A DNA stretch of 64,000 nucleotides from Candidatus Giovannonibacteria bacterium. Its GTDB lineage: Bacteria; Patescibacteriota; Minisyncoccia; UBA11713; 2-01-FULL-45-33. The stretch's first letter is position 1. Each line of letters starts with the position of its first letter. Shown piece after piece: positions 4,943-33,011 of this stretch. A program made the translations under genes and the position numbers. The stretch lies in the NCBI GenBank assembly GCA_016176295.1, contig JACOXN010000004.1, forward strand, positions 6,655-70,654, in the 5' to 3' direction. The notes below the pieces were generated by a model, which was not told the DNA's origin, made no database searches, and saw only the letters and a list, made by a program, of their open reading frames with translations.

Positions 4943-6331
4943 TTGAAAGTGAAGAAATTGACGTTTGACGGCAAAGGCGAAATCGGGGGTTCCAATTACT
5001 GTTACAACGGTACTATCGGCGTCGACCACGGTGCTATCCAAGGAAAGAAGAAAATTTCATATCCCGCGCCAAACGGAGTGTCCCCGCTCGTTGTCATAGC
5101 CTCCCATTCTCACATTGATCACATCGGAGGATTCGCGTGCCTAGCAAAGCATCGTCCGGAAGCCAAATTCTTCATGACACAGACGACTCTGGACGGAATG
5201 ATATTGTTACTCAACGATTCTCTGAAGATCGCGCGTAGCCAGGCCGAGTTCAATTCACTGAAAGGGCTCCCGTCGGAGCCGCCGGCATTCGAAGAAGAAG
5301 ATATCAGTCACGTTGAAAGCCAAACCGAAATAATAAAAAATATCGGTTGGTTCGAACCCGTGAAAGGATATCATCTTTCACTCCGCTCCGCCGGCCACAT
5401 GCGCGGAGCATCCATTGAGCTCATGGTTACGCCGGACGGAACGAGAGTGGTTCACGCGGCGGATATCTCGGTGGAAGAGAGGGCTTTGGTAAGAGGGGCC
5501 GCGGTCCCGAAAGATTTCCTTAACCCGGATGTCCTGGTCATCGAATCAACTTACGGCTCGAAAGAACTCCCGGACCTAAAAGGAGAAAAAGATAAGTTGA
5601 TCTCCGTCACAAAGGAAACGCTCAAAAAAGGCGGGAGCGTCCTCGTCGGACATTTTGCCTCGATGCTGGACAACATAGTGATCCCTTTAGCTGAAGCTAA
5701 AATACAAGTTTATGTTGACGGCATGGGCAGACAATTTCTGAGAATTTACGCGGCGGCAAAAAACTGGTGCCCCGAAGACAGGCCGTTCTCGCTTTCCGGT
5801 TACGATAATGTACATTTCATCGATCCTGACCGCGGTACAGCGACAGCGCAGAGAAAAAAGCTGTTGAGTGGTAAGCTAAAAGGGGCCATTGTGTGTCCTT
5901 CCGGAATGTACGAAGGAGGACATTCGGTCACATACATCAAGCAATTAATGGAATCCCGCAAAAATACAATCATCATGCCGGGATTCCAGGCTGACGAAAC
6001 TCAAGGTCGGGAGATTCAGGAAGCTGAGTCCGGAGACCTGATCGATTTCAAATGCGAGCGCGTGATGAAAATAAACGAGAAAAAAGAGGCGAAAGAATGG
6101 CATGAGTACCGAAGGCTAAACGCGCCTGTCGTACAAATAAAATACTCCGGCCATTCAGGCGGCGATAAAATGGCCAAGTGGGTCGCCGAGCTCAACCCCA
6201 AAAAAGTGGTAACTGTGCACGGCGATCCGGAGGGACATGAGGGGCTAAAAGACCGGATCCATCGCCTGAACAGAAATATCGATGTCGTGCGGGCAACCGG
6301 CGAGACAATCAAGTTCTCTTTTCGCAGTTAA
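4943..6331 (+). CDS. MBL-fold metallo-hydrolase, beta-CASP RNA-metabolising family (RNase J/CPSF-like), paralog 1
   Basis: HSHIDHIGG (HxHxDH) motif. 462 aa. A terminator hairpin follows. Confidence 0.6.
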   Translation: MKVKKLTFDGKGEIGGSNYCYNGTIGVDHGAIQGKKKISYPAPNGVSPLVVIASHSHIDHIGGFACLAKHRPEAKFFMTQTTLDGMILLLNDSLKIARSQAEFNSLKGLPSEPPAFEEEDISHVESQTEIIKNIGWFEPVKGYHLSLRSAGHMRGASIELMVTPDGTRVVHAADISVEERALVRGAAVPKDFLNPDVLVIESTYGSKELPDLKGEKDKLISVTKETLKKGGSVLVGHFASMLDNIVIPLAEAKIQVYVDGMGRQFLRIYAAAKNWCPEDRPFSLSGYDNVHFIDPDRGTATAQRKKLLSGKLKGAIVCPSGMYEGGHSVTYIKQLMESRKNTIIMPGFQADETQGREIQEAESGDLIDFKCERVMKINEKKEAKEWHEYRRLNAPVVQIKYSGHSGGDKMAKWVAELNPKKVVTVHGDPEGHEGLKDRIHRLNRNIDVVRATGETIKFSFRS

Positions 6332-10803: not shown

Positions 10804-11009
10804 AAATTGTTATATTATATTTTTTATTCTGTTAAAGACATCGACCAAGTATATATATGTACATCATAAATGCTACATCATTAAATCTTTGTGAATTAAA
10901 GGACAAGTGATTGTACGAGACGAAAAATATCAAAGTATTTTAGTGACCTACCGTCGCAAAATTAAAGCGCGAAGTGCACCACTCGTTTTAAACTAAACAT
11001 ACCCGCAGG

Positions 11010-11980
11010 CCTGCCTACCGGCAGGCAGGTACGCTAGAAGTATTAGCAGCTAACAGTACCAAACGGGTATGTACACACATCTTAAGCGCGATCAACGTAT
11101 CGCGCTAGCCGCTCTCCTGCGGTCCGGATATTCACGGCGGCAAGCGGCAAAAGAAATCGGCGTAGATCACACAACGGTCGGCAGAGAAGTTACGCGCAAC
11201 CCGATAACTCTCGGGCGGTACCATGCCGGACACGCCGACGTTCTGGCGCGAATGAGAAGGAAAAGGTCGAGAATGGCTTATCGGACCATAGAAAACAATC
11301 CTGAGCTTGTATTGCGTATCGAAAAGCGCCTTCATCCGCTGGTTTCTCCCGAGGTCATCGCGCATGATGAAAGCATCAGTCATGTCACTGTTTATGCCTG
11401 GATTTACCGTTCCCGCCCGGATTTGCTTTTGCGTCTCCCACAGAGAGGAAAGAAACGCAGGCGTTACGGGTCAAAAAGAGCCGGAAAACAGGGCTGGACA
11501 ACAAAAGTTCGCCCCATTGATGCACGGCCCGCAATCATCGATCAACGATTACGTGTGGGAGATTTTGAGGGTGATACCGTCAGAGGTAAGAACGGATCTT
11601 TGCTTACCCTCACGGACAGGAAAAGCCGTTTTGAAGTTGTCGTAAAAATGCCCGGCGACTATTGCGACCTGGTGCATGCCGCCATTGTGAAGATCCAGCG
11701 CAAGGTTTTTGCCAAATCTTATACTTTCGACAGGGGTTCTTGTTTTTCTCTTTGGCCTATGATTGAGCGGGATGCAGGAGTGCGAGTATATTTTGCTCAT
11801 CCGCGTTCACCTTGGGACCTGTCGTGGCATGGCCGCAATAATTATTACGCTCCCGATAGCGGCAGCTCCACGACCACATTTTCTGAAATACTAAAATCCT
11901 ATGCCTACGAAGGCAGCGGAAAAAATTATACTTTCCTGACAATTACCCGCGAGCTGAAGCCTGAGGAGGCACAAAAATGA
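11010..11980 (+). mobile_element. IS30-family insertion sequence, probably degenerate (no right inverted repeat found)
   Basis: Transposase gene plus an upstream 20-nt near-palindrome (11010-11029). The downstream ORF overlaps the transposase stop, and no inverted copy of the left-end sequence was seen within 450 bp downstream. Confidence 0.35.
11069..11980 (+). CDS. IS30-family transposase (DDE region partly diverged)
   Basis: N-terminal HTH (LKRDQRIALAALLRSGYSRRQAAKEIGVDHTTVGRE). IS30 signature VGDFEGDTVRGKNGSLLTLTDRKSRF. C-terminal YFAHPRSPW matches IS30 YFAxPYSPW, but the second D/E region reads FDRGSCF and the NENTNG region is degraded. Confidence 0.75.
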   Translation: MYTHLKRDQRIALAALLRSGYSRRQAAKEIGVDHTTVGREVTRNPITLGRYHAGHADVLARMRRKRSRMAYRTIENNPELVLRIEKRLHPLVSPEVIAHDESISHVTVYAWIYRSRPDLLLRLPQRGKKRRRYGSKRAGKQGWTTKVRPIDARPAIIDQRLRVGDFEGDTVRGKNGSLLTLTDRKSRFEVVVKMPGDYCDLVHAAIVKIQRKVFAKSYTFDRGSCFSLWPMIERDAGVRVYFAHPRSPWDLSWHGRNNYYAPDSGSSTTTFSEILKSYAYEGSGKNYTFLTITRELKPEEAQK

Positions 11981-17845: not shown

Positions 17846-18562
17846 TTAATGCAGATGGTGATAAAGCTTCCTTTCCCCGCCATAAAGCTTCTGAAGCTCA
17901 TCGGGCGTCAAAACATCCAAAGGAGAACCGAAACAAATCTGCACTTTATTTAAGCAGAGTACTTTGTTCGCGTATTTGTAGACCACGGAGAGATCGTGCG
18001 AAATGAGGGCAAGGGTGAGACTGTATTCATCCTGCAGCTTGTGCAAAAGCTCGTAAACGGTTTCCTGACCGGCCACATCCACGCTAGCCGTTGGCTCGTC
18101 GAATAGCAACAAGTCCGGATGCCCGATTATCGCCCAGGCGATAAGTATCCTCTGAAGCTCCCCCGAAGAGAGTTCGCCGATCTTTTTTGAAAGATACTCC
18201 TCCCCCAACCCCACCATTTTAAGCACTTTCGCCGGCGAATGCTCATCATCCTCCGAAGGGTGGATTCTCAATTTCAAGAATTCTTCGGCCGTCATCGGAA
18301 TATCGCGCTCCAGATCTATTTTTTGCGGCACGTATCCTATCTTTATATTTTTTTCTTTTTTAAGCTCCCCCTCATGAGGAATAGAGCCCAATATAGCCCG
18401 GAAAAGCGTGGTCTTCCCGGAGCCGTTGGGGCCGATAACCGCAAGGGTATCCCCGCGGTCCAATGAGAACGAAACATCCGATACTCCCTCGAATGTTTTA
18501 TCCTTGCCGTATCCGGCTTTCAGGTCATTTAACTCTAAAATCGGCATAAGAAATTCTATCAC
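17846..18562 (-). CDS. metal ABC transporter ATP-binding protein (ZnuC-like)
   Basis: Walker A GPNGSGKTT. ABC signature LSSGELQR. Walker B LLLFDEPTASVD. Confidence 0.8.
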   Translation of the reverse strand: MIEFLMPILELNDLKAGYGKDKTFEGVSDVSFSLDRGDTLAVIGPNGSGKTTLFRAILGSIPHEGELKKEKNIKIGYVPQKIDLERDIPMTAEEFLKLRIHPSEDDEHSPAKVLKMVGLGEEYLSKKIGELSSGELQRILIAWAIIGHPDLLLFDEPTASVDVAGQETVYELLHKLQDEYSLTLALISHDLSVVYKYANKVLCLNKVQICFGSPLDVLTPDELQKLYGGERKLYHHLH

Positions 18563-20391
18563 TTTTTAAGACATTTAAGAAAATCTCCCAAAGGCAGCGT
18601 GTTTATTATGTCGCTTTTTTCGGCCCACCCGCGCCTCGCCTGGGCAATGCCGTATTCCAGGTAAGAAAGCTCATGCACCGAATGAGCATCTGTGTCTATA
18701 ACCATCTTAACTCCGGCTTCTTTTGCCATCCTGATATGCTCATCGGAAAGATCCAGCCGCCAGGGATGGCCGTCTATTTCCAAAATTGTCCCGGTACGCT
18801 TAGCCGCTTTTATTATGGCTTCGATATCCACGTCGTAAGGTTTGCGGCGGTTGATTATCCGGCCGGTCGGATGGAAAATAATATCCACGTTCCGATTTCC
18901 CATCGCCTTTATTATCCTTGCTGTCTGGTCCTCGCGAGAAAGATTAAAAAACGAATGCACGGCGGCCCCGACGACGTCAAGCTTGGCCAAAGTCTTATCG
19001 TCAATATCCAGAGAACCGTCCTTCAATATATTTACTTCGGCCCCTTTCAGTATCTTGAATTTTGACTTTTGTCCGCCGGATCGCGGATTAAATTTTAAAT
19101 TAAGTTTGTCTATCTCAGACATTTGGCGCAAAAGTTTTTTTTCATCAGCACCGCCCGTCATGGCAAGAGACCTCGTATGGTCCGTTACCGCCATGTATTC
19201 GTGCCCGAGTCTCATGGCTTCCTCCGCCATTTCCGAAATCGAGTTTGCGCCGTCCGTCCAATCTGTTTGCGTCTGCAAATCCCCCTTCAGATCTCCATAG
19301 CCCACGAGCTTTGGAAGCCGGTGTTTTAAAGCTGCTTCTATTTCCCCGCGGTTCAACCTCATTTCCGGAGGAGGGGTATCCATTCCCAATTTTTTGTAGA
19401 CCTCTTCTTCAGTATGCGCCGCAACCAATGTTTCTTTCTGCGTAGTTCTGCGTTTCTTTCCGCGTGTATCTGCGCTTTTGAAAAGCCCGTACTCGTTAAG
19501 TTTGTACCCTTTCTTGATAGCAATCTTCCGCACCTCGACATTGTGGTCTTTCGAACCGGTAAAATATTGGAGAGCCGCGCCGAATGAAACCTTGGGAAGA
19601 ACGCGCAGATCCGCGTCTAATCCCTGCTTCAGTCTGACAAGAACCTTGGTGGGGCCTTTCGCGAAAACATGACTCACTTCAGGCATTTTTGAAAAAAATT
19701 CGCAGATCATTTCCGGGTTTTCCGAAACAGCTAGAAAATCCAGGTCGCCGATAGTTTCCTGCCGTCTTCGCAACGATCCGGCTATTTCAATCGCTTCGAC
19801 GCCTTTTACTTTTTCAAGCCGCGACTTCATCGCGCGCGCCAAAGGAAGCAGCTTCCCTATTTCCACCCTTCCTCCGCCGCTTTTTTTATATTCGATACCT
19901 TTCAAAATTTTCTGCTCCATCTTTTCACGGATGTGCGGGATTGCGCGGAGTTCCCCGGAAGCGGCGGCCTTTTCAAGATCGGAAATATTTTTTATTTTTA
20001 GCTGATTGTAAAGCAGCTTTATCATTTTCGGACCCACCCCTTCAATCGAAGAAAGAGAAGCAATATCCACCGGAAATTTTTTCTTAAGACGATCGTACTC
20101 TTTAAAATGACCGTCGGAAAAAAGTTGCTTAAGATGCTCCGCAATCCCCCGGCCCACGCCGGGAATTTTCATGAGCCCCTTTATCCCGTCTTTTTTATAG
20201 ACACTCTCCACTTCCTCTTGCAGCCCGGCTACCCCGTCCGAGGCTCGCTCATACGCCCGGGGCTTGAACTCCACGCTCTCCATTTCGTAAAGCACAGCCA
20301 TCTCGGCCAAAATTTTTGATATCTCTTCATTGGTCATTATTCTTATATTATCATCCCCTAAAAGTGAAGTCGAAATTAGCATGCATAGCAT
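18559..20391 (-). CDS. polX: DNA polymerase X family protein with C-terminal PHP domain (PolX)
   Basis: HhH motifs (GVGPKMIKLL). Nucleotidyltransferase GSLRRRQETIGDLDFLAVS. PHP domain (MAVTDHT..., HSFFNLS..., IIFHPTGR). Confidence 0.8.
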   Translation of the reverse strand: MLCMLISTSLLGDDNIRIMTNEEISKILAEMAVLYEMESVEFKPRAYERASDGVAGLQEEVESVYKKDGIKGLMKIPGVGRGIAEHLKQLFSDGHFKEYDRLKKKFPVDIASLSSIEGVGPKMIKLLYNQLKIKNISDLEKAAASGELRAIPHIREKMEQKILKGIEYKKSGGGRVEIGKLLPLARAMKSRLEKVKGVEAIEIAGSLRRRQETIGDLDFLAVSENPEMICEFFSKMPEVSHVFAKGPTKVLVRLKQGLDADLRVLPKVSFGAALQYFTGSKDHNVEVRKIAIKKGYKLNEYGLFKSADTRGKKRRTTQKETLVAAHTEEEVYKKLGMDTPPPEMRLNRGEIEAALKHRLPKLVGYGDLKGDLQTQTDWTDGANSISEMAEEAMRLGHEYMAVTDHTRSLAMTGGADEKKLLRQMSEIDKLNLKFNPRSGGQKSKFKILKGAEVNILKDGSLDIDDKTLAKLDVVGAAVHSFFNLSREDQTARIIKAMGNRNVDIIFHPTGRIINRRKPYDVDIEAIIKAAKRTGTILEIDGHPWRLDLSDEHIRMAKEAGVKMVIDTDAHSVHELSYLEYGIAQARRGWAEKSDIINTLPLGDFLKCLKK

Positions 20392-20900: not shown

Positions 20901-21749
20901 TTAACTCATCACCTGGGCGGCAGCGATCGAAAGAAGCACGACCAGAAACGCTATGGTTTTTTTCCAGTGAAAAGGCTCTTTTAATATCAGAACCGCCGAA
21001 GCGTAAACCAAAAAAGGCTGAAGAGAAAAGAGCAGAGCGGTGTGAACTATGCCCAGCCGTTGGTAACTGAAATAAAACAGCAGCCAGGCGACCGTCGTAA
21101 AAATATTCGTAAGGAAAAGCAATGAAAAATTCCGGATAGAAACCCTTTTGGCCGCCTTTGCGAACATAAGCCAAATGGCGAGAGCGGTAATCCCGGAGCG
21201 CACAACCTCAAGCGAAATGGGGTTCCAGGAGATAAGCAGCACTTTGGAGAGCGCGGCGGAAAGCGGCGCCGCCGAAAAAGCCCAGATAAAAAATGGCAGT
21301 GTTTTTTTAGCTATCTTAAAATGTCTTTTTTCCCAATGCGACCAGAGAATGGCCAAAGAAGAAACTAAAGCGGGTATGAGAATATAGTAATTCCTTTCAT
21401 CGGGAAAAATAAAGCTTGAAAAAATAATCGCCGGAATGGCTGTGAGAAGCCCCAAGGTTTCCATCTCGGAGAGATCCTCGAAAGAAAGCGCGCGGTAATA
21501 GAGAACGTTCGTGATAATCGTTATGGCGCAGGAAAGAAGTATCAGCCCCAGGCTCCAGCCGAAAAAAAGCTCGACCGATAACGGCGGACGGAAAAGTATA
21601 AAAATGAAAAGTGTGATGAAAAAAGACAGAGGAAAACTGACGCCGACATAGGTTCTAAAATCGAACTTCTTGAACGACAAAATGGTCTTGTCCAAAACCA
21701 CGGAACCGGTTTGCAGGAACGCCGCCAAAATTGGGAAAAGGAAATTCAT
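20901..21749 (-). CDS. EamA/DMT-superfamily-like membrane transporter (about 10 TM)
   Basis: 282 aa, two halves of five hydrophobic helices each. Confidence 0.45.
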   Translation of the reverse strand: MNFLFPILAAFLQTGSVVLDKTILSFKKFDFRTYVGVSFPLSFFITLFIFILFRPPLSVELFFGWSLGLILLSCAITIITNVLYYRALSFEDLSEMETLGLLTAIPAIIFSSFIFPDERNYYILIPALVSSLAILWSHWEKRHFKIAKKTLPFFIWAFSAAPLSAALSKVLLISWNPISLEVVRSGITALAIWLMFAKAAKRVSIRNFSLLFLTNIFTTVAWLLFYFSYQRLGIVHTALLFSLQPFLVYASAVLILKEPFHWKKTIAFLVVLLSIAAAQVMS

Positions 21750-22321
21750 GCTTTGGTCTTCAAATTAAGCAGCGCCGGCAATTTTTTAAAATCTTTTTCA
21801 AGCTCTTTTAATACATTAGTCGAACGGAGCGCGGCAGCCGGATGGTAAAGCGGCAGGATAAGCACGCTTTTTTCTTTGGTTTTTACGATTACGGGCTTTC
21901 CATGGTCCAGCGATATCTTTGCATTGGGCAAAAAATAGTTCATGGAAAAACGCCCAAGGGTGGCAATCACTTTCGGATCGATTATCTTTATCTGTTTCTT
22001 TAAATAAGGCTTATACGCCTCTATCTCTTCCGGCAGCGGATCGCGGTTTTCCGGGGGACGCCTTTTTACGATATTTGAAATATAAACCGATCCCCTCGGC
22101 CAGCCAATATCCGCCAAGAGCTTACCCAAAAGTTTTCCGGCGCGTCCGACGAACGGCCGTCCAACCTTATCTTCAAAAAAACCGGGCGCCTCGCCGATAA
22201 ACATAACACGAGCCTCGGGGTCTCCCTCTCCGAAAACCAGAGTGGCCGAGCCGAAGAGTGGCAAGCCTTCGTCGGTTTCCATGTTCTTTTTTAACTCATC
22301 CAAGAGGATTTTTTTATTCAT
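21746..22321 (-). CDS. uracil-DNA glycosylase, family 4
   Basis: [35 protein letters not shown] ... HPAA. Confidence 0.75.
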
Positions 22322-25208: not shown

Positions 25209-26564
25209 CTACAACTCAACACTCTCGCCGTATTTTGGCGCATAGGCTTCGATGCCCATATAATCGCGGATGGTTTGCACCAGATTGAACGAAGACCGCG
25301 GCTCGCCGTGCACCAGAAAAACTTTTTTTAAAGTGTCGGCTTTTCCCTGCACAAAATTGAAAAGATCTTCTTTGTCGGGGTGCGCCGAATATCCGTTTAT
25401 TTCTTCAATATGGCAATTGACCGGGACTTCATCTCCGAAAAGTGTTACAGTCTTTGCGCCGTCCCTGATGCGGCGGCCCAGAGTTCCCGGAGCCTGGTAA
25501 CCGACAAAAAGTATGGTATTTCTCGAGTCTTTCAGATACCGGCGCTCGTGGTGAAGTATCCTTCCGCCCGTAGACATCCCGGAACCGGCAATTATTATTT
25601 TGGGCGCGGAGACATTATTTATTTCCTTGGATTCTTCGGTGGTCAATGTGAATTTAACGTCGGGAACGCTAAAAAAAGAAAATGAGCCCGTCTGCCCGAA
25701 AGCTTTTTTCAGGTGGGTATCGTAATATTTTTGATAAATTTTTGTGGCTTTTATGGCAAGCGGACTATCGAGAAAAATGGGGATCTCTGGTATCTGTTTT
25801 TCTTTGAGCATGCCGGATATTTCCCAAAGCAGCTGCTGCGTCCTCTCTAGTGAAAAAGCCGGGATCATCAAAACTCCTCCCCGCCCGACACTTTTTTCTA
25901 TAACTCGCTCCAATTTGAGCCTCCTCTCCGCTTCGCCTTCGTGGTCGGTATCGCCATATGTCGATTCAGCCACCAAGAACTGCGGGCCAAGCGGAGTTTC
26001 TTTCACTTCTATCAATGGATTGCTAGGGTTCCCGAGGTCGCCCGTGAAAAGCGCCTTTGTCGCCCCTTCTTCGACAAGCAACATTGAAGAGCCCAGAATA
26101 TGCCCGGCATTGTAAAGCGTCACCGTAAAACTCCCCGCGGCTATTTTTTCCATGTAATTTTTCCCCTCCCACATACCGATCGCGCGCGACACATCCTCCT
26201 CGGAATAAAAGACCTCCTCCTTTTCGCGCGAGGCTTCTTTAGTCATTACGCCCAGGCTGTCGGAAAGCATCAGCTCGCCCAGATCTTTTGTGGGAAGCGA
26301 GGAATAAATTTTCCCCATGAAACCGTCTTTAACAAGCTTGGGGATCCTTCCGGTGTGGTCCAAATGCGCGTGAGTTATGAAAAGCGCTTCAATGCCCGCG
26401 GGGTCGAACGGAAACTTTTCACGGTTGCGGTCATCGCAAAATTTATGGCCGCCCTGGAAAAGACCGCAATCTATTAGTATTTTATCTTTCGCCGGAGATC
26501 CTGATTCAAGAAGAAAACAGCTTCCGGTCACTTCCTCCGCCGCGCCATAAAATGTAAGTTTCAT
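25209..26564 (-). CDS. MBL-fold metallo-hydrolase, beta-CASP RNA-metabolising family, paralog 2
   Basis: HAHLDHTGRIP HxHxDH motif, 451 aa. Same architecture as the gene at 4943-6331. Confidence 0.65.
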   Translation of the reverse strand: MKLTFYGAAEEVTGSCFLLESGSPAKDKILIDCGLFQGGHKFCDDRNREKFPFDPAGIEALFITHAHLDHTGRIPKLVKDGFMGKIYSSLPTKDLGELMLSDSLGVMTKEASREKEEVFYSEEDVSRAIGMWEGKNYMEKIAAGSFTVTLYNAGHILGSSMLLVEEGATKALFTGDLGNPSNPLIEVKETPLGPQFLVAESTYGDTDHEGEAERRLKLERVIEKSVGRGGVLMIPAFSLERTQQLLWEISGMLKEKQIPEIPIFLDSPLAIKATKIYQKYYDTHLKKAFGQTGSFSFFSVPDVKFTLTTEESKEINNVSAPKIIIAGSGMSTGGRILHHERRYLKDSRNTILFVGYQAPGTLGRRIRDGAKTVTLFGDEVPVNCHIEEINGYSAHPDKEDLFNFVQGKADTLKKVFLVHGEPRSSFNLVQTIRDYMGIEAYAPKYGESVEL

Positions 26565-26983: not shown

Positions 26984-27574
26984 TTAGAACATTATATCCT
27001 CCTCCGCCCGTTTATAGTCGTGGATCTCTTCCGGCGAGAACCAGTGTTCGATTTCATGCGAAGATTCTTCCTGATTTCCGGAAGCATGCACAATATTTTT
27101 TACAACACGCTTCTCTACATTGGCTGCAGAGGGAGTATCTACTGAGTAATCTCCGCGAATCGTGCCTGGCAAAGCTTCAATTGGATAAGTATGTCCGACT
27201 ATTTTGCGCACGGTACTAATAGCATGCATTCCTTCAATAACCATAGCCACAACCGGACCGGCGGTTAGATAGTCTGCAAGCCAACTTTTAACCTGTTTTC
27301 CTATCTCAACTACATCGTCAGTGCCAAAATGTTCGTTAACGTTTATTTTTTTACCATCAAAAAATTCTTTGGTCCGGGAACCAACGGACTTAAACCATTC
27401 ATCGTGAGATGGGTAGTGCTTATTAATGTGTTCGGCAGTAGGCCAAACCATTTTTAATGCAATAATCTTGAGACCTCGTTTCTCAAAACGAGTTAATACT
27501 TCCCCTACTAAACCCCTCATTACTCCGTCAGGCTTTACTAAAACGAATGTTCTTTCTTCTTTAGGATGTGTCAT
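26984..27574 (-). CDS. ndk: nucleoside-diphosphate kinase with ~50-aa C-terminal extension
   Basis: ERTFVLVKPDGVMRGLVGEVLTRFEKRGLKIIALKM ... NIVHASG. Confidence 0.85.
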   Translation of the reverse strand: MTHPKEERTFVLVKPDGVMRGLVGEVLTRFEKRGLKIIALKMVWPTAEHINKHYPSHDEWFKSVGSRTKEFFDGKKINVNEHFGTDDVVEIGKQVKSWLADYLTAGPVVAMVIEGMHAISTVRKIVGHTYPIEALPGTIRGDYSVDTPSAANVEKRVVKNIVHASGNQEESSHEIEHWFSPEEIHDYKRAEEDIMF

Positions 27575-27596
27575 ATTTAATTATATTACTATTTTT

Positions 27597-28472
27597 TTAT
27601 TCGAAATACCAGGAGATAGCTCCGCCGGTAATTTCAAAAATAACCGTCCCGTCGCGGTCCGTGCGGAAAATTTTTGAGCCGACTGAAGCCAGGCGCGTCA
27701 TCGCTTCGCTTGTCGGATGACCATAATTATTTTTACCGACGGAGATAACGGAATATTCCGGCTTAACCTTCCGCAAAAACACGTCCGAGCTTGAATTCTT
27801 AGAGCCATGGTGCCCGACCTTGAGCACATCCACGTCGTCAATAAGCCCCCGCCACGATAAGGCGGCCTCAAGGCCTTTCTCGGCGTCTCCCATAAACATG
27901 ATCTTTTTGCTCTCGAAAATAAGTTCCGCGACCAACATTGCATCGTGAGCGTTCTTTAAGGATCTCCCTTCGAATGAAACATCCGGATAAAGGAATTTAA
28001 TTTCACCTCCGTTAAAGAAAGAAAGTTTGGTCGGCCCTTTCACGTCGATCTTTTTTACTCCTTTAGAAAAAATAAGTCTTTCAAATTCACCGGCTTCGGA
28101 GGTATTATATTCCATCCCGCTTTCAAAAACAGCGCCGACCTCATAACGCTTCAGAACTTCAATCAATCCGGAGACATGGTCTTTATGCGGATGAGTTAAG
28201 ATTACCGCGTCAATGGAACGGTCGTAATAAGGCATGACTGATCCAAGTTTCGAAAGCACCTGCGAATTGGGCCCGCCGTCTATCAAGACCTGAGTGCCGT
28301 CGCGCGCCTGGATAAAAATAGAATCCCCCTGTCCGACGTTCAGAAAATAAACGGCAAGGTCGGGTTCACTCTCTTTTTCAAATACCGCCTGCCAAATAAT
28401 AAGGTTCGACGCGGCCAAAACAAAAAATAATATCCAGAGCCCTTTTTTGTAATAACTTTTAAACACGCTCAT
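27597..28472 (-). CDS. ComEC C-terminal MBL-domain protein (separate ORF with its own TM anchor)
   Basis: LTHPHKDHVSGL, GDSIF, VGHHG. ATGA-type 4-nt overlap with the upstream ComEC membrane-domain ORF. Confidence 0.7.
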   Translation of the reverse strand: MSVFKSYYKKGLWILFFVLAASNLIIWQAVFEKESEPDLAVYFLNVGQGDSIFIQARDGTQVLIDGGPNSQVLSKLGSVMPYYDRSIDAVILTHPHKDHVSGLIEVLKRYEVGAVFESGMEYNTSEAGEFERLIFSKGVKKIDVKGPTKLSFFNGGEIKFLYPDVSFEGRSLKNAHDAMLVAELIFESKKIMFMGDAEKGLEAALSWRGLIDDVDVLKVGHHGSKNSSSDVFLRKVKPEYSVISVGKNNYGHPTSEAMTRLASVGSKIFRTDRDGTVIFEITGGAISWYFE

Positions 28473-30145
28473 GTTTGCAACCGGTTAGAACTCCTGAAAC
28501 GGATCCATGACCAATAAAAAAGCGCGGCATAAATAAAAAGAAGAAGGGATATGGGTAAAAAGCCGAACTTAATCATGCTGAATGAAAGACCCCCGAAAAA
28601 ATTAACCAGATATATCTGATAAGCAATCAGTATATACGCCGCGCCCGCAATTATTTTACCCAACCCGAGCGAGAAAAAAGAGAAAATACCCCCCAAAAAA
28701 CCAAAAAGCATTACCAAAGGCACGACACTGGCGATGAGTATATTCGCCAGGGGAGAAAGCCAAGAAATTTCCCCGCCCCAGGAAAGGAGAAGCGGCAAAA
28801 CGAATATCTGCGCCGCGAATGACGCGGCGGCGTTTTCCCTTAGCCCCAAAGTTTTTGGAATGAAAGAGAATATTTTTTGGAAAAAAGAAGAAGCGATAAT
28901 AAGCCCCAAAGTCGCCAGGAACGAAAGCTGGAAACCCCGGTCAAACCGCATGAGGAGCGGATTCCAAAGAACCATGAACATTGCGGCCCACATGAGCGCG
29001 AGAAGCGCGGTGTTTTTTCTGCCTGCGCGAAAAGCCAAAAGGCCGATAACAGCCATGAGGGCGGACCGCACCGCCGCGGCCTCGGCTCCCGACATCAATG
29101 TAAAAGCCGATATCGCGGCCACGGCCAAAAGCCAGGCAACGCTTTCCGGAAATATCATGCCGAAAAGCGCCATGGTGAAAATACCCACGATGGTTATGTT
29201 GTAGCCGGAAAGAACAAGTATGTGAATAGTTCCGCTTTTCCGGAAATTATCTACGAGCCCTTTTTCCAAAAAACCCTGATTTCCCAAAAGCATGCCGTCG
29301 GCCAAAGAGGCATGCGGTTCCGGCAAAATCAGGCGCAATTTTTTCTCAAAACCGTCTTTGACCATGAAAAGAAAACTGAAAAATTTGATTTTTAGAGAAG
29401 AAAACCTTGCAGTTGAATTTTCAGATGCGAGATTTTCTTTTTTCTCGATTTCCGGAAAGATCATTTCTGAATAAACTAAGTCTTTTGCGAGAAGTTTTTT
29501 ATTGTCTATAGCGCCGAAAACCTCGGGCTCTTCGATTTTGCCCGATATTTTGAGGGTGTCCCCGTATTTATACTGTGGATAGACCGCTTTCACCACCCGG
29601 AGCTTCCCCAGACCGGTTTCCACTATCAGTTGCTCGCTGTTCGGTTTGGGGATGCTTTTTAAAACTGCTCCGTCCAAAACCATTTCTTCTCCATAATGGA
29701 GATGAAGAAAATCATCTTGGATATTGTTTTCGTAAAGATCGAAGCGAAGAATGCCCAGGAAAAAAAGAAACACGACAAGCGACATTTTTTTTAGAAAAAA
29801 TTTTCCTGAAAATTCATTGCCCGCAACTTCCGTTTCGCTCGGTCTTAACCCTCCCTCGCCAGCTCGGGGGGCTCCGACCTGCCTACCGGCAGGCAGGCGC
29901 GCCTCGCACTCCGAAAGTTGCGGGCAATTTGTTAAATTTCCAGGAGAAATCGACGGTTGAGACTTGGCTCTTTCCAGAATAAATGAAAATAACAAAATAC
30001 CGCCGGTTAGTCCGATGCCAAGGTAAACCCATTCACTCGGAATGTTGAAAAAAGACCGGGAAAATACTCCGGCGAGAAAAGATATCAGAAATAATGCGAT
30101 GCGCGCCACGGGCGAATCGTAGCAAAGTCCTTCATTTAATTCCAC
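28469..30145 (-). CDS. comEC: DNA internalisation-related competence protein ComEC/Rec2 (membrane + competence domains)
   Basis: 558 aa, N-terminal DUF4131-like region and a polytopic competence domain. Contains a low-complexity in-frame insert ARLPAGRQVGAPRAGEGG encoded over the 20-nt repeat. Confidence 0.75.
   Translation of the reverse strand: MELNEGLCYDSPVARIALFLISFLAGVFSRSFFNIPSEWVYLGIGLTGGILLFSFILERAKSQPSISPGNLTNCPQLSECEARLPAGRQVGAPRAGEGGLRPSETEVAGNEFSGKFFLKKMSLVVFLFFLGILRFDLYENNIQDDFLHLHYGEEMVLDGAVLKSIPKPNSEQLIVETGLGKLRVVKAVYPQYKYGDTLKISGKIEEPEVFGAIDNKKLLAKDLVYSEMIFPEIEKKENLASENSTARFSSLKIKFFSFLFMVKDGFEKKLRLILPEPHASLADGMLLGNQGFLEKGLVDNFRKSGTIHILVLSGYNITIVGIFTMALFGMIFPESVAWLLAVAAISAFTLMSGAEAAAVRSALMAVIGLLAFRAGRKNTALLALMWAAMFMVLWNPLLMRFDRGFQLSFLATLGLIIASSFFQKIFSFIPKTLGLRENAAASFAAQIFVLPLLLSWGGEISWLSPLANILIASVVPLVMLFGFLGGIFSFFSLGLGKIIAGAAYILIAYQIYLVNFFGGLSFSMIKFGFLPISLLLFIYAALFYWSWIRFRSSNRLQT
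29878..29897. repeat. 20-nt near-palindrome CCTGCCTACCGGCAGGCAGG, second exact copy at 11010-11029
   Basis: Exact 20-mer occurs twice in the window: once ~40 bp upstream of the IS30 transposase gene and once in-frame inside comEC. Confidence 0.5.
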
Positions 30146-30155
30146 TGCCGCCTAT

Positions 30156-31154
30156 TCAGGCGTGTTCATTTAAATATTTAAGAAGATCGGGCAGAGCCTT
30201 CCGAGCCTGCTCTTCGGAACCGAAGGGCGCAGAGCCGACGTACGCATGCCCTCCGCCTCCGTAATTTTTTTCGAGGAACCAGCCGATCTCCGCCGGTTTT
30301 TTCGGGCTGTTCCACGGATTCACGCCGACAGCCAAGATAAAATTTTTCCCGTGGCGGACGAGCCTGACCGAGTAATTGGCTTTGGTATAAAAATAGTACG
30401 GCGCGAAGCGGATGCCTATCAATTTTCTTTCCAAATTTTCAATGAAAATAGTATTACCTCTGATTTCCAGTTTTTCTTTCATCTTCTGCAGAGATTCATC
30501 GAACTTTTTTTTGCATGTTAGAAAACCTTTTTTAACCCAGGGCAGGTCCACGGCATCCGCCAGCGATTTTTTGCTCAATGTATTGATAAGCTGTTTTTGC
30601 CGGCTGCGGGATATATTGTTTTCATTATCGAGAAAAAAGCCGATCTTTAAAGCCGGATATTTTAATTCAAGCAGATCCTTTACGGAAATTTGCTTCGGGT
30701 TGACGCGGTCCAGAATATCGCTCCACTTGGTCATTTCCCGAAGCCGAGCCGGTATCTTGGACCTTGCGGCCCCCGAAAGCGAGCTTAAGATAAGCCCCGC
30801 GCATGACGGCCTTGCCGGGTCGAACACATGCAGCTTTGCATCATCCAAATTTTTTCCGGCGGGTTTATATGAACCGGCCCATTCGCTGTCGATGAACGTA
30901 GTATCGTGATGGTCGAACCAGATCTTCGCCCCGGGATGATAAAGAATATCCACGATGGCAGATGTTTTTTTTAATTTCTCGCCTTTCCACCAGTTCTTAT
31001 CAACGGGGTGCTGGAGTGGAATGTAACGGGCGAAATCATCTCCCCGCAAATTTAAAAAATATTTAAGAACAGCCGCCGATACGGTCCCATCCAAGCAATT
31101 TTCATGATAATAAATGTCGTATTTCATATTAAGTAGCCGATCTGCCGCAGCCAA
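30156..31154 (-). CDS. DHH-DHHA1 family phosphoesterase (NrnA/RecJ-like)
   Basis: HENCLDGTVSAAVL (motif I), WFDHHDT (DHH), NYGGGGHAYVG (DHHA1 GGGH). Confidence 0.7.
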   Translation of the reverse strand: MAAADRLLNMKYDIYYHENCLDGTVSAAVLKYFLNLRGDDFARYIPLQHPVDKNWWKGEKLKKTSAIVDILYHPGAKIWFDHHDTTFIDSEWAGSYKPAGKNLDDAKLHVFDPARPSCAGLILSSLSGAARSKIPARLREMTKWSDILDRVNPKQISVKDLLELKYPALKIGFFLDNENNISRSRQKQLINTLSKKSLADAVDLPWVKKGFLTCKKKFDESLQKMKEKLEIRGNTIFIENLERKLIGIRFAPYYFYTKANYSVRLVRHGKNFILAVGVNPWNSPKKPAEIGWFLEKNYGGGGHAYVGSAPFGSEEQARKALPDLLKYLNEHA

Positions 31155-31936
31155 TAATCATTTTCCCATTCCCAGAGAGTTTTTGCCGCGAGAAAAGCCT
31201 TAATGTCGCGGTACGGGTAAGGAAACTCTCGAAGCTCAACCACGCCTTTCGTCGGGCCCCAGAAGTGGTCCCCGTGCGCCGACCCGCAATTTTTGGCCGG
31301 AGCCGCATTCCTTCCCTGCCAGGCCGTCCTCACCTTATTGCGGCCGCCTTTTTCCCGCAGAGTGGAGCCGCACCGCATACAATTTTTAACCTGGTCTACC
31401 CTCAAGATCCAGCGAGTCTGGATATCTTTGGGAAGAGCAAGAGAGTTTTTTACTTCGCGCTCCTGCAAAGCCAGAACGTAAGCCGCCGTCTGCAGATTGT
31501 AGTCGGAATAAAACCCCGTAGAGGTCTTGATATCCAGCACGCCGAACTTTCCGTCTATTGAAGCGAGAGCGTCCACCGTGCCGGAATATTTGTGGATACC
31601 TGACCAAATAGAGCGCTCCACGAATTCAGGATGAAAAAAAATATTCCTAGTTTTGTTAAATTCCTCGAAAGCCTCCACCACGGGCCGCATTTCTTCAGTA
31701 ACCATGTAGGGCTCCCCCACGGCGGTCTTCTGGATAGCTTCGTGGACTCTTGTCCCTTCTTCCGCCGAGCGCATTTTGACCTCTTCCGCGGCGGCGTAGG
31801 ACTCCATCTCTTTCATAAACATATCAATGGCCGGTTTTGATTTTATGGACAAAATTTTCGTGACACGCGGAAACCACTGGCCATTTACATTGTGCCCCGA
31901 TTCTTTCATAAATTGTTCAGCGTCCCTGTACCACAT
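31124..31936 (-). CDS. PD-(D/E)XK (RecB/Cas4-like) nuclease-fold protein with C-terminal Cys cluster
   Basis: GTVDALASIDGKFGVLDIKTS ... QTAAYVLAL ... CMRCGS ... NCGSAH. Confidence 0.5.
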   Translation of the reverse strand: MWYRDAEQFMKESGHNVNGQWFPRVTKILSIKSKPAIDMFMKEMESYAAAEEVKMRSAEEGTRVHEAIQKTAVGEPYMVTEEMRPVVEAFEEFNKTRNIFFHPEFVERSIWSGIHKYSGTVDALASIDGKFGVLDIKTSTGFYSDYNLQTAAYVLALQEREVKNSLALPKDIQTRWILRVDQVKNCMRCGSTLREKGGRNKVRTAWQGRNAAPAKNCGSAHGDHFWGPTKGVVELREFPYPYRDIKAFLAAKTLWEWENDYWLRQIGYLI

Positions 31937-32003
31937 GAAGAATATATTAGCTTAAAAATCTTCTATACACAAATAAAAAAGCGGCGATTATGCCGCTTGT
32001 GTT

Positions 32004-33011
32004 TCATGCGCCTGAATTATTTGACCGGATGCGTCTTTGTTCTTTCATGAGTTTGTTCTCGGCAATCGCCAAAGTCCAATAAAGTTTTGACTCTTCCGGC
32101 GAGAGCCTTTTTTCTTCCAAAAACAGTAAGGCGTCATCGACCCCGTAACAATTAAAAATATTCTCTGTGTCGAGCAACACGGAAATTTCATTTGGGAACA
32201 GATGACGCTCATGGCAAGCAGGGAAATTACCGACAAAAAACTTTTTTTTCTCCGCCTGGGCAGCGTGGATGACATAGTGCGGATATGGCGCTTCAGAACT
32301 GGCGAACTGCTCAGCACTAACGGCATATCGCCAGTGTGACGCTTCGGACCTGTTCACGAAGAACCTAAAGCCTTTTTGATATAAATCACTCAACTTATGC
32401 ATATCTCCATGGGTAAACCCAAAAACAGTTTCGTCCTCGGGTCTAAAAAGACTTACATGGGTTGCCCCAACTTCTGGCGCTCCTGAAACCTGAAATCTAT
32501 ATTTTTCGTCCGAATATTTGACCACAAAGAGCCCGGTTCCGGTATACGCATAGTCCGTTTTGGAACAATCCGCCAACCCGACATATTCGGTATTTCGGTC
32601 ATCGTCCAGTTTACGCAAAAGACCTTTGGTTTGGGTGTATTTTGAAGCCAGTATTGAAGTGGTTGTATTGAACAGTAAGATTTTTACTCCCAGCATTCCG
32701 GACAGTATATCGCGTTGCGCCATTATGCGGTGGATCACTTTTTCCTGGTTTTCAGAAAGCTCATTTACTGGAATATTGCGAGCCCCCGAATGGCCGCCTC
32801 TGCGACGAAGCGTATACCCCCAACTACCCGGCGCAAAAACTTCAAGCTCGACATCTCTTTTGTTGTTATCTCCGCCGTCCTCGAGCCTGTGGCCAAAAAT
32901 ATGACCATTGGAAGCAATAGTAAACACTAAAGTTCCTTTTTCCGTTTGTAGATATGGAATATTCTCCACTTCCACAACGGCTTTTGCCTGTAAAACTCCT
33001 GTAAACTCCAT
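32004..33011 (-). CDS. hypothetical protein, 335 aa, no recognisable family
   Basis: Long ORF with normal composition, co-directional with the nuclease/DHH/comEC block. No motif I can name. Confidence 0.5.
   Translation of the reverse strand: MEFTGVLQAKAVVEVENIPYLQTEKGTLVFTIASNGHIFGHRLEDGGDNNKRDVELEVFAPGSWGYTLRRRGGHSGARNIPVNELSENQEKVIHRIMAQRDILSGMLGVKILLFNTTTSILASKYTQTKGLLRKLDDDRNTEYVGLADCSKTDYAYTGTGLFVVKYSDEKYRFQVSGAPEVGATHVSLFRPEDETVFGFTHGDMHKLSDLYQKGFRFFVNRSEASHWRYAVSAEQFASSEAPYPHYVIHAAQAEKKKFFVGNFPACHERHLFPNEISVLLDTENIFNCYGVDDALLFLEEKRLSPEESKLYWTLAIAENKLMKEQRRIRSNNSGA

Follow-up and report, generated by a model that had tools for sequence, protein, structure and literature searches.

We analysed a 64-kb stretch of a Candidatus Giovannonibacteria chromosome (the window; all positions below are relative to this whole stretch) and in it a gene block at 26984-33011 that contains comEC, the gene for the DNA-uptake channel. 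This part of the Giovannonibacteria chromosome belongs to its conserved housekeeping backbone and holds a genuine two-gene ComEC, in which the channel and the metallo-β-lactamase (MBL) nuclease subunit are separate polypeptides. A reduced core, made up of a slot for a single-stranded DNA (ssDNA) exonuclease, the RNase HI gene rnhA, comEC, the MBL gene and the nucleoside-diphosphate kinase (NDK) gene ndk, recurs across divergent Parcubacteria. We put the probability that this reduced core is coupled for the salvage of imported DNA, without amounting to a complete module from import to nucleoside triphosphates (NTPs), at roughly 0.4, with inherited gene order as a near-equal rival. The original prediction, made from the letters of the sequence, had described a DNA-uptake and nucleotide-salvage module in a small-genome bacterium of the candidate phyla radiation (CPR); its guess at the host was right, Candidatus Giovannonibacteria being a member of the CPR/Parcubacteria. 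Read along the minus strand, the genes concerned are:

33011-32004, minus strand: unk335, an open reading frame (ORF) of 335 amino acids (aa) with no function assigned
31936-31124, minus strand: PD-(D/E)XK protein, 270 aa
31127-30156, minus strand: DHH-like protein, 323 aa from the ATG supported by homologues (the longest ORF begins at 31154)
30145-28469, minus strand: ComEC channel, 558 aa
28472-27597, minus strand: MBL protein, 291 aa
27574-26984, minus strand: NDK, 196 aa
26977-26561, minus strand: TM138, a small membrane protein of 138 aa with two hydrophobic segments

Seven co-directional genes had been claimed for 26984-33011. They are indeed co-directional, all on the minus strand, and their number in this range is six: the small membrane protein that had been counted as the seventh and placed ahead of ndk actually lies outside the range, after ndk. 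Three of the proteins have 100% identical NCBI entries from a Giovannonibacteria metagenome-assembled genome (unk335, HYT01_00870; PD-(D/E)XK protein, HYT01_00865; DHH-like protein, HYT01_00860), and for the DHH-like protein both the NCBI gene model and the homologues use the ATG at 31127.

We compared gene neighbourhoods in two sets of related loci. Set 1 was anchored on the PD-(D/E)XK protein and consisted of the best 80 of 417 loci from a scan of one genome per species, taken with 10-kb flanks and searched by tblastn with 17 window proteins. Set 2, meant to separate function from shared ancestry in independent clades, was anchored on a Wolfebacteria-like ComEC and yielded 78 usable metagenome loci, searched with hidden Markov models built from set-1 orthologues; its ComEC proteins have a median pairwise identity of 36% and are at most 43% identical to the window's ComEC. 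Counts of set-1 neighbours up- and downstream of the PD-(D/E)XK gene have the loci with adequate flank as denominators, and the ratios from both sets are raw counts in which kinship is ignored.

The division of comEC into a channel ORF and an MBL-domain ORF, also part of the original prediction, was found as two separate genes in all 103 related loci examined. The channel protein matched PF03772 (4.1e-42; 144.8 bits against a cut-off of 23) and consists of N-terminal transmembrane (TM) helices, a putative oligonucleotide-binding (OB)-like region and the Competence domain, with multiple hydrophobic segments and a collinear alignment with its relatives. Its OB-like region matched DUF4131 (PF13567) at 6e-4, below the cut-off (20 bits against 31.6), and aligns with that of relatives. 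The polypeptide has no MBL domain and so is not the fused, three-domain form. The MBL protein matched Lactamase_B (2e-14), and its best NCBIfam match was to the C-terminal part (positions 432-663) of TIGR00361 ComEC_Rec2 (3.2e-29, 101.6 bits); it carries an intact HPHKDH (HxHxDH) motif at residue 94 and a single N-terminal hydrophobic anchor at residues 11-32, with lysines before the anchor. Neither half reached the ComEC_Rec2 equivalog threshold of 190 bits (channel 49.3, MBL 101.6). Judged by these matches and the anchor, the MBL protein is the nuclease domain of ComEC, made as a separate polypeptide with a membrane anchor of its own, and its MBL domain is predicted to face outward. The MBL start overlaps the comEC stop by 4 nucleotides (nt), and the two polypeptides are translationally coupled. 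In set 1, comEC and the MBL gene were separate ORFs in 25/25 loci that held both, usually overlapping by a few bases; in three of these relatives they stood 1.3-2.3 kb apart with other genes between them. No ComEC-MBL fusion occurred in the 78 further ComEC loci of set 2. A frameshift or pseudogene origin is ruled out by the retention of the split in every relative, and we regard the split ComEC as real and ancestral.

A GC-rich palindromic insert of ~115 nt (29812-29930, minus strand) extends, without a change of frame, the loop that joins TM2 to TM3 of the channel (peptide …NCPQLSECEARLPAGRQVGAPRAGEGGLRPSETEVAGNEF…). Its outer arms of 17 nt contain one mismatch, and as RNA it folds at -67.2 kcal/mol (z = -6.2). 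The ComEC proteins of relatives either have no such insert or carry other inserts in the same loop. A second full copy was found neither in the window nor in 160 related loci; the inner hairpin alone recurs. This hairpin, CCTGCCTGCCGGTAGGCAGG, appears on the other strand at 11009-11030, ~40 nt upstream of an IS30-like transposase gene (11069-11980; HTH_38 and rve domains), and near-identical stretches of 18-22 nt occur in the related loci L035, L026, L078, L065, L045 and L038. The recurring inner hairpin may represent a small family of repeats resembling repetitive extragenic palindromes (REP) or miniature inverted-repeat transposable elements (MITE). The insert as a whole recalls in-frame palindromic repeat insertions such as the Rickettsia palindromic elements (RPEs).

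Of the divergent loci of set 2, 48/61 had an MBL gene no more than 3 kb downstream of comEC, 17/42 had ndk no more than 6 kb downstream and 24/63 had RNase HI just upstream. The β-CASP RNase gene and TM138, which follow ndk in the window, were each found in 0/42 and the SLOG gene in 1/42; ndk and rnhA thus persist beside comEC where other local neighbours do not. An Adk-like kinase was present in 7/42 loci and pgk in 9/36. Both the PD-(D/E)XK protein and the small DHH protein were absent (0/50 each), and a HIT protein together with a RecJ of 566-578 aa filled the stretch between pgk and rnhA in 19/50. No set-1 locus contained RecJ, and a tblastn search of the window with a Parcubacterial RecJ was negative. 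Over 160 loci, the pgk-rnhA slot held either the PD-(D/E)XK protein, with or without DHH, or HIT plus RecJ, and never both. Unbiased clustering of set-2 neighbours returned MBL (51), rnhA (25), RecJ (23), ndk (21), HIT (17), NrdG (10) and NrdD (8). In these raw counts, linkage beyond close relatives was seen for MBL, ndk and rnhA, and not for the PD-(D/E)XK protein, DHH (0/50) or unk335 (2/80). We also observed that NrdD/NrdG, the anaerobic ribonucleotide reductase, stands directly upstream of comEC in 8-10 set-2 loci (clusters 13 and 15). The HIT-family gene lies on the opposite strand beside RecJ in the pgk-to-rnhA slot of L110 (4832-7478), L125 (4420-6580) and L147 (4321-6522), and L110 also holds a small two-gene pair resembling a toxin-antitoxin system.

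Closer to the window, in Giovannonibacteria-like genomes, the collinear order is secY-adk-map…tpi-pgk-PD-(D/E)XK-[variable]-comEC-MBL-ndk-TM138-β-CASP-SLOG-MgtC-permease. Set 1 had pgk upstream of the PD-(D/E)XK gene in 52/72 loci and, downstream of it, comEC in 24/57, ndk in 21/57 and RNase HI in 38/57, 14 of these last without comEC. The recurrence of comEC linkage in relatives had been named beforehand as a check on the prediction, and it was found, both in set 1 as a whole and in 17/23 of the closest loci; it dropped with divergence, to 6/14 and 2/14 in the next bands of falling PD-(D/E)XK identity. RNase HI (~148 aa) stands immediately upstream of comEC in 24/24 comEC-bearing set-1 relatives. 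It is absent from the corresponding junction of the window (30145-30156, a 10-nt spacer) and from the whole 64 kb; since all 24 relatives have it, rnhA has been deleted from this position in this lineage or relocated away from it. Other neighbours of comEC in single loci include a phosphoribosyltransferase-like gene (L073, 14322-16534) and TatD (L026, 11690-14729).

The PD-(D/E)XK protein had been read as a nuclease fold with a Cys cluster, and both invariant motifs and the fold bear this out. Its match to PF12705 just missed the gathering cut-off (21.4 bits against 22), and several close homologues carry a precomputed PF12705 match. In 27 sequences the residues D122, D135-x-K137 and Q149…Y153 are invariant, as are C186, C189, C217 and H224 of a zinc-ribbon-like CxxC…C…H insertion. 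An AlphaFold2 model (pLDDT 88.5) gave human MGME1 as its best Foldseek match (E 9e-8; TM-scores 0.56/0.67), followed by Dna2, Cas4 and RecE. A sequence profile searched against the PDB had MGME1 as its sole match (E 0.04), and the corresponding single-sequence search returned noise only. MGME1 is an ssDNA and flap exonuclease. It shares with the window's protein the D…DxK plus QxxxY arrangement of the catalytic site and differs in sequence, with only 14-15% identity to a protein that is known by sequence and model; to our knowledge, MGME1 does not carry the zinc-ribbon-like insertion. The MGME1 entries in the PDB (5ZYU, 5ZYT, 8XA9) are the best structural matches, with a TM-score of up to 0.71 on the target, and their titles name ssDNA complexes. 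We predict that the PD-(D/E)XK protein is a cytoplasmic, MGME1-like ssDNA exonuclease of the RecB/Cas4 type. An identity as Cas4 itself was rejected: TIGR00372 scored 23.9 bits against a cut-off of 65, there were no cas genes among the neighbours, and in place of the four Cys of the Cas4 iron-sulfur cluster the protein has three Cys and one His, clustered within 40 residues. The search yielded 985 homologues, the best 120 of them at 57-72% identity, and 417 relatives in the species-level scan. In the same loci, this protein is better conserved (57-72%) than pgk or tpi (37-60%). Its identity of 50-72% across Giovannoni-, Sungii-, Ryan-, Wolfe- and Liptonbacteria places it among the most conserved proteins of the region, and it is uncharacterised.

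The gene that follows, overlapping the PD-(D/E)XK stop by 4 nt, had been labelled a DHH-DHHA1 phosphoesterase. A Pfam search at E=10 returned nothing; the gathering thresholds of DHH (PF01368) and DHHA1 (PF02272) were not reached, and relatives were also sub-threshold. The label is nevertheless supported by a full-length match to PggH (PDB 7d62), whose E-value is 9e-7 for the protein alone and 6.8e-21 when the family profile is used (positions 12-311), and by residues invariant in the family (H17, D22, D69, D81-H82-H83, D149 and G301-G302-H303). PggH and the NrnA/NrnB nanoRNases resemble the window's protein in being stand-alone enzymes of ~320 aa with DHH and GGGH motifs and full-length profile similarity; the window's protein differs in lying below every Pfam DHH/DHHA1 threshold. 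By analogy with these enzymes, it is predicted to act on dinucleotides or short oligonucleotides. A RecJ identity was rejected on size, 323 aa against ~570 aa for a DHH-DHHA1 core with C-terminal domains. The slot after the PD-(D/E)XK gene holds the window's DHH type in 5/80 set-1 loci and, in 15, a second type (~290 aa), a distant homologue (hhalign probability 89%, E 2e-6) that does pass Pfam DHHA1 (29.6 bits against 25.9). A DHH-type gene occupies the slot in 17/24 comEC-bearing set-1 relatives. An exhaustive profile search gave 1626 representatives of the DHH family, non-CPR members such as Terriglobales included. Among them, P0180 (729 aa) and P0290 (700 aa) carry an N-terminal PGK and a region resembling the NTP pyrophosphatase MazG, the latter on a weak Pfam match with which the JGI name agrees; these DHH-PGK and DHH-MazG-like proteins could be true fusions or run-through gene calls.

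The identification of the last gene of the block as ndk was confirmed by PF00334 (1.6e-39, in two stretches) and by the catalytic motif NIVHAS at residue 160. At 196 aa the protein is a long form: an extra ~35 aa separate the two stretches matched by Pfam, and because of this internal insertion it narrowly missed the NCBIfam equivalog (144.6 against 155). The ComEC-linked ndk genes of set 2 encode the same long form (~197 aa).

The remaining two proteins of the list stand apart from the conserved set. unk335 had no Pfam, NCBIfam or PADLOC match even at E=10, has five homologues only (43-47% identity) and gave an unusable AlphaFold2 model (pLDDT 35.6). It occurs in 2/80 set-1 loci, and pgk and the PD-(D/E)XK gene are directly adjacent in 33/53; this junction is a variable slot that holds unrelated inserts in other loci. 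unk335 is probably a lineage-specific, sporadic insert outside the conserved set. TM138, also without a family match, is kept in the close clade only (16/80 set-1 loci, 0/42 in set 2).

The chromosomal setting gives the block no clear limits. Spacers from the PD-(D/E)XK gene to the amino-acid permease gene (22944) measure -4, 10, -4, 22, 6, -4, 36, 15 and 3 nt. Those from PD-(D/E)XK to ndk, at -4 to 22 nt, suggest co-transcription of these genes. The same tight packing runs on for 4 kb beyond the end given for the block, through a β-CASP RNase, a SLOG/LOG-like protein, MgtC and the permease, and the lower boundary is arbitrary because of it. At the other end, unk335 is flanked by spacers of 302 nt upstream and 67 nt downstream, the latter with a terminator-like hairpin at 31998-31979. 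Scans for promoters and terminators did no better than shuffled sequence (14 vs 15.0; 21 vs 17.4), and transcription units were not definable. Upstream lie pgk, tpi and a subtilase gene, then map, adk and secY, so that the block sits just downstream of the end of the ribosomal spc operon. The minus strand carries almost every long ORF between ~17069 and 47067, a run of housekeeping genes of ~30 kb, which makes the shared direction of the block uninformative. The discrete seven-gene module of the original prediction did not survive this comparison: collinearity spans secY to the permease, unk335 and TM138 are sporadic or confined to a clade, and the boundaries are arbitrary.

Several other features of the window were noted. 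A PolX-type polymerase with a PHP domain (18559-20391) and a uracil-DNA glycosylase (21746-22321) follow the block at a distance of a few genes within the same minus-strand run and are further DNA-maintenance genes near it. The window holds two paralogous β-CASP MBL ribonucleases, at 25209-26564 (downstream of TM138) and 4943-6331. For the former, the NCBIfam model 'type VII CRISPR-associated Cas14' gave 393.7 bits, where the cut-off is 800, and aCPSF1 gave 292.5 bits; this protein is most likely a housekeeping enzyme of the RNase J/CPSF kind. An Rfam scan of the whole window gave a transfer-messenger RNA (tmRNA) only.

From the gene identities, catalytic motifs, folds, split state and neighbourhood statistics, we infer a possible salvage scheme, including its substrates, its topology, co-transcription and the flow of material from ComEC to NDK. 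The MBL subunit would degrade one DNA strand outside the cell and the ComEC channel would import the other. The PD-(D/E)XK exonuclease would break imported ssDNA that is not recombined down to short oligonucleotides, which the DHH enzyme would reduce to (deoxy)nucleoside monophosphates ((d)NMPs); NMP kinases encoded elsewhere would act next (adk lies six genes upstream), and NDK would make the (d)NTPs. DNA uptake by the window's ComEC is a prediction; uptake has been demonstrated only for Saccharibacteria comEC (PMC10633639). In keeping with the scheme are the ssDNA complexes of MGME1, the activity of the DHH protein NrnB on 5-mer DNA, the DHH-family member fused to a MazG-like NTP pyrophosphatase, and the NrdD/NrdG, Adk-like kinase and HIT genes beside comEC in set 2. 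The consulted parts of one study describe the ComEC C-terminal domain as extracellular, as a nuclease and as important for transformation (PMC8579336), and degradation of the non-transported strand is ascribed to it there and in the consulted parts of another (PMC12455585). The recurring reduced core is what would be expected if imported ssDNA were passed to a cytoplasmic exonuclease and the products re-phosphorylated, and the occupation of one slot by two unrelated types of ssDNA exonuclease hints at selection for function there.

A number of observations weigh against such coupling. The complete import-to-NTP route of the original prediction is not encoded here: the block has no NMP kinase, and adk sits between secY and map, as it does universally. 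The window genes that were scanned included no ComEA, ComFC, DprA or pilus genes. If the MBL domain faces outward, its products would be extracellular. The DHH substrate is not readable from homology, because relatives range from the strictly pGpG-specific PggH (PMC8861645; PMC10570053) to general enzymes such as the DHH protein NrnB, which degrades 5-mer DNA as fast as RNA (PMC10570053). PggH is also the only solved close relative, and the enzyme might instead be a phosphodiesterase for signalling nucleotides (pGpG, pApA or c-di-AMP) whose position is incidental and which has nothing to do with DNA breakdown. We consider this improbable. It would fit the rarity of the window's DHH type among related loci and the occurrence of the family outside the CPR, in Terriglobales. 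It sits poorly with two very divergent DHH subfamilies sharing the slot between PD-(D/E)XK and rnhA in 20 loci, with the presence of comEC in 17/18 DHH loci with enough flank, and with members fused to PGK and a MazG-like NTP pyrophosphatase. The original prediction had itself offered another alternative, a defence-type nuclease system beside comEC; in such a system the PD-(D/E)XK, DHH and MBL proteins would act on phage or foreign DNA. PADLOC did return weak Cas4 matches for the PD-(D/E)XK protein (6.6e-7) and LmuA, DRT-MBL and Avs1a matches for the MBL protein (1.9e-24 and weaker), and inserts vary at the junction of pgk with the PD-(D/E)XK gene. These are generic MBL- and Cas4-like matches, however, and the partner genes of Lamassu, DRT, AVAST, CRISPR-Cas, CBASS or Thoeris systems are missing; the nucleases do not belong to a defence effector family with such partners. 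For the MBL protein, the C-terminal domain of ComEC is a better match (101.6 bits) than the best defence model (84.5 bits), and its gene adjoins comEC in 48/61 diverse loci of set 2; the PD-(D/E)XK protein falls far short of the Cas4 equivalog, and DHH and unk335 have no PADLOC match. Unlike patchy defence genes, the PD-(D/E)XK gene belongs to the highly conserved core and keeps to one locus, beside pgk, with 417 relatives in the species-level scan. A defence system is thus very improbable.

The near-equal rival to salvage coupling is inherited housekeeping synteny without a shared pathway, which we hold to be a tentative but serious explanation. Under it, the nucleases and RNase HI would serve replication and repair, through removal of RNA primers and flaps and clean-up of oligonucleotides, ComEC would serve transformation and NDK general metabolism, and the clade would simply not yet have scrambled an ancestral Parcubacterial order. 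RNase H1 and MGME1 process primers and flaps on mitochondrial DNA, and conservation of the PD-(D/E)XK protein above that of pgk and tpi fits a core DNA-maintenance enzyme. Most of the gene-order evidence that counts against coupling is also evidence for synteny. In the window's clade the long collinear run equally covers unrelated genes (secY, adk, map, tpi, pgk, β-CASP, SLOG, MgtC and the permease), and linkage of comEC falls as the PD-(D/E)XK protein diverges. The steadiest partners of the PD-(D/E)XK gene are pgk and rnhA, not comEC: pgk directly precedes it in 49/50 loci at ≥55% identity, and it keeps both partners in lineages without a nearby comEC. In L018, PD-(D/E)XK-DHH-rnhA-ndk is retained and comEC and MBL are gone. 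Set-2 loci mostly have either RecJ-rnhA upstream or ndk downstream, with both in three loci only, an either-or pattern that looks like decay of an ancestral order; the genes kept beside comEC are the physically nearest ones, and the unbiased clustering also returned an M50-like protease (16), rpsL (16), rpsG (13), SOD (12) and FtsZ (12). In the only genetic test in a CPR bacterium, in Saccharibacteria, transposon sequencing argued that comEC is dispensable for growth, and comEC was required for transformation (PMC10633639). Against synteny as the whole explanation, ndk stands beside comEC-MBL in 40% of very divergent loci, where the well-conserved β-CASP gene, two genes further on in the window, was never found; PD-(D/E)XK or RecJ, unrelated ssDNA exonucleases, fills the slot upstream of rnhA-comEC according to clade; and NrdDG, the Adk-like kinase, HIT and the phosphoribosyltransferase (L073) recur beside comEC. 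Salvage coupling of the reduced core accordingly keeps the probability given at the outset. A stronger form of it seems rather unlikely to us: a dedicated Parcubacterial 'DNA-to-dNTP' locus, in which a two-piece ComEC would be coupled to the ssDNA-exonuclease slot and NDK, with RecJ displaced in Giovannonibacteria by an MGME1-like PD-(D/E)XK protein plus a nanoRNase-like DHH enzyme. Such a locus would parallel, in bacteria, the MGME1 system of mitochondria, here enlisted to feed on DNA taken up from outside.

Bacteria of the CPR do not make their own nucleotides, and where these come from is an open question. The idea that they scavenge through ComEC rested mainly on the presence of genes and was weakened by the dispensability of comEC in Saccharibacteria. 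To this the present analysis adds a concrete, testable set of genes (those for a stand-alone MBL nuclease with a membrane anchor, for RecJ or the MGME1-like exonuclease, for the PggH-like DHH phosphoesterase, for RNase HI and for NDK), a signal in gene order that in part persists longer than synteny in general, and a highly conserved, uncharacterised family of MGME1-like nucleases that is nearly universal beside pgk in many Parcubacteria. If the coupling is true, the cytoplasmic half of a salvage route has been identified; if it is false, the region is a well-preserved housekeeping string whose nucleases work in replication and repair.

Both the idea of scavenging and the unfused state of CPR ComEC are in the literature already. 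In the consulted parts of Méheust et al. 2019 (PMC6744442), scavenging of DNA for nucleotides by the com system of CPR bacteria is proposed, ComEC is enriched in the CPR, at 86% of genomes, and fusion of ComEC to MBL is called 'essentially absent'; these parts mention no adjacent stand-alone MBL gene, no neighbourhood of ndk, rnhA or an exonuclease, and no evidence from gene order. MBL genes that are split from comEC or adjacent to it are not a topic of Pimentel and Zhang 2018. In the literature searched, we found no description of comEC-ndk linkage, of an anchored stand-alone MBL at comEC, of rnhA as a neighbour, or of one slot held in some loci by RecJ and in others by an MGME1-like nuclease together with a small DHH protein. 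Compared with ComEC/Rec2 of, for example, Bacillus subtilis, as presented in the consulted parts of PMC8579336 and PMC12455585, the window's system has the same Competence domain and MBL nuclease with HxHxDH motif, together with the putative OB-like region, and differs in that MBL is a separate polypeptide with its own N-terminal anchor, as in all 103 Parcubacterial loci. The RecJ of other Parcubacteria resembles the PD-(D/E)XK nuclease in occupying the same slot, pgk…rnhA-comEC, and in being an ssDNA exonuclease, and differs in being a multidomain protein of 566-578 aa that is not homologous to it. In the comE operon of B. subtilis (comEA-comEB-comEC), comEC shares its operon with comEB, which encodes a dCMP deaminase. 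That operon has other partner enzymes, a fused ComEC and a ComEA, and it resembles the Parcubacterial locus in placing a nucleotide-metabolism gene beside comEC.

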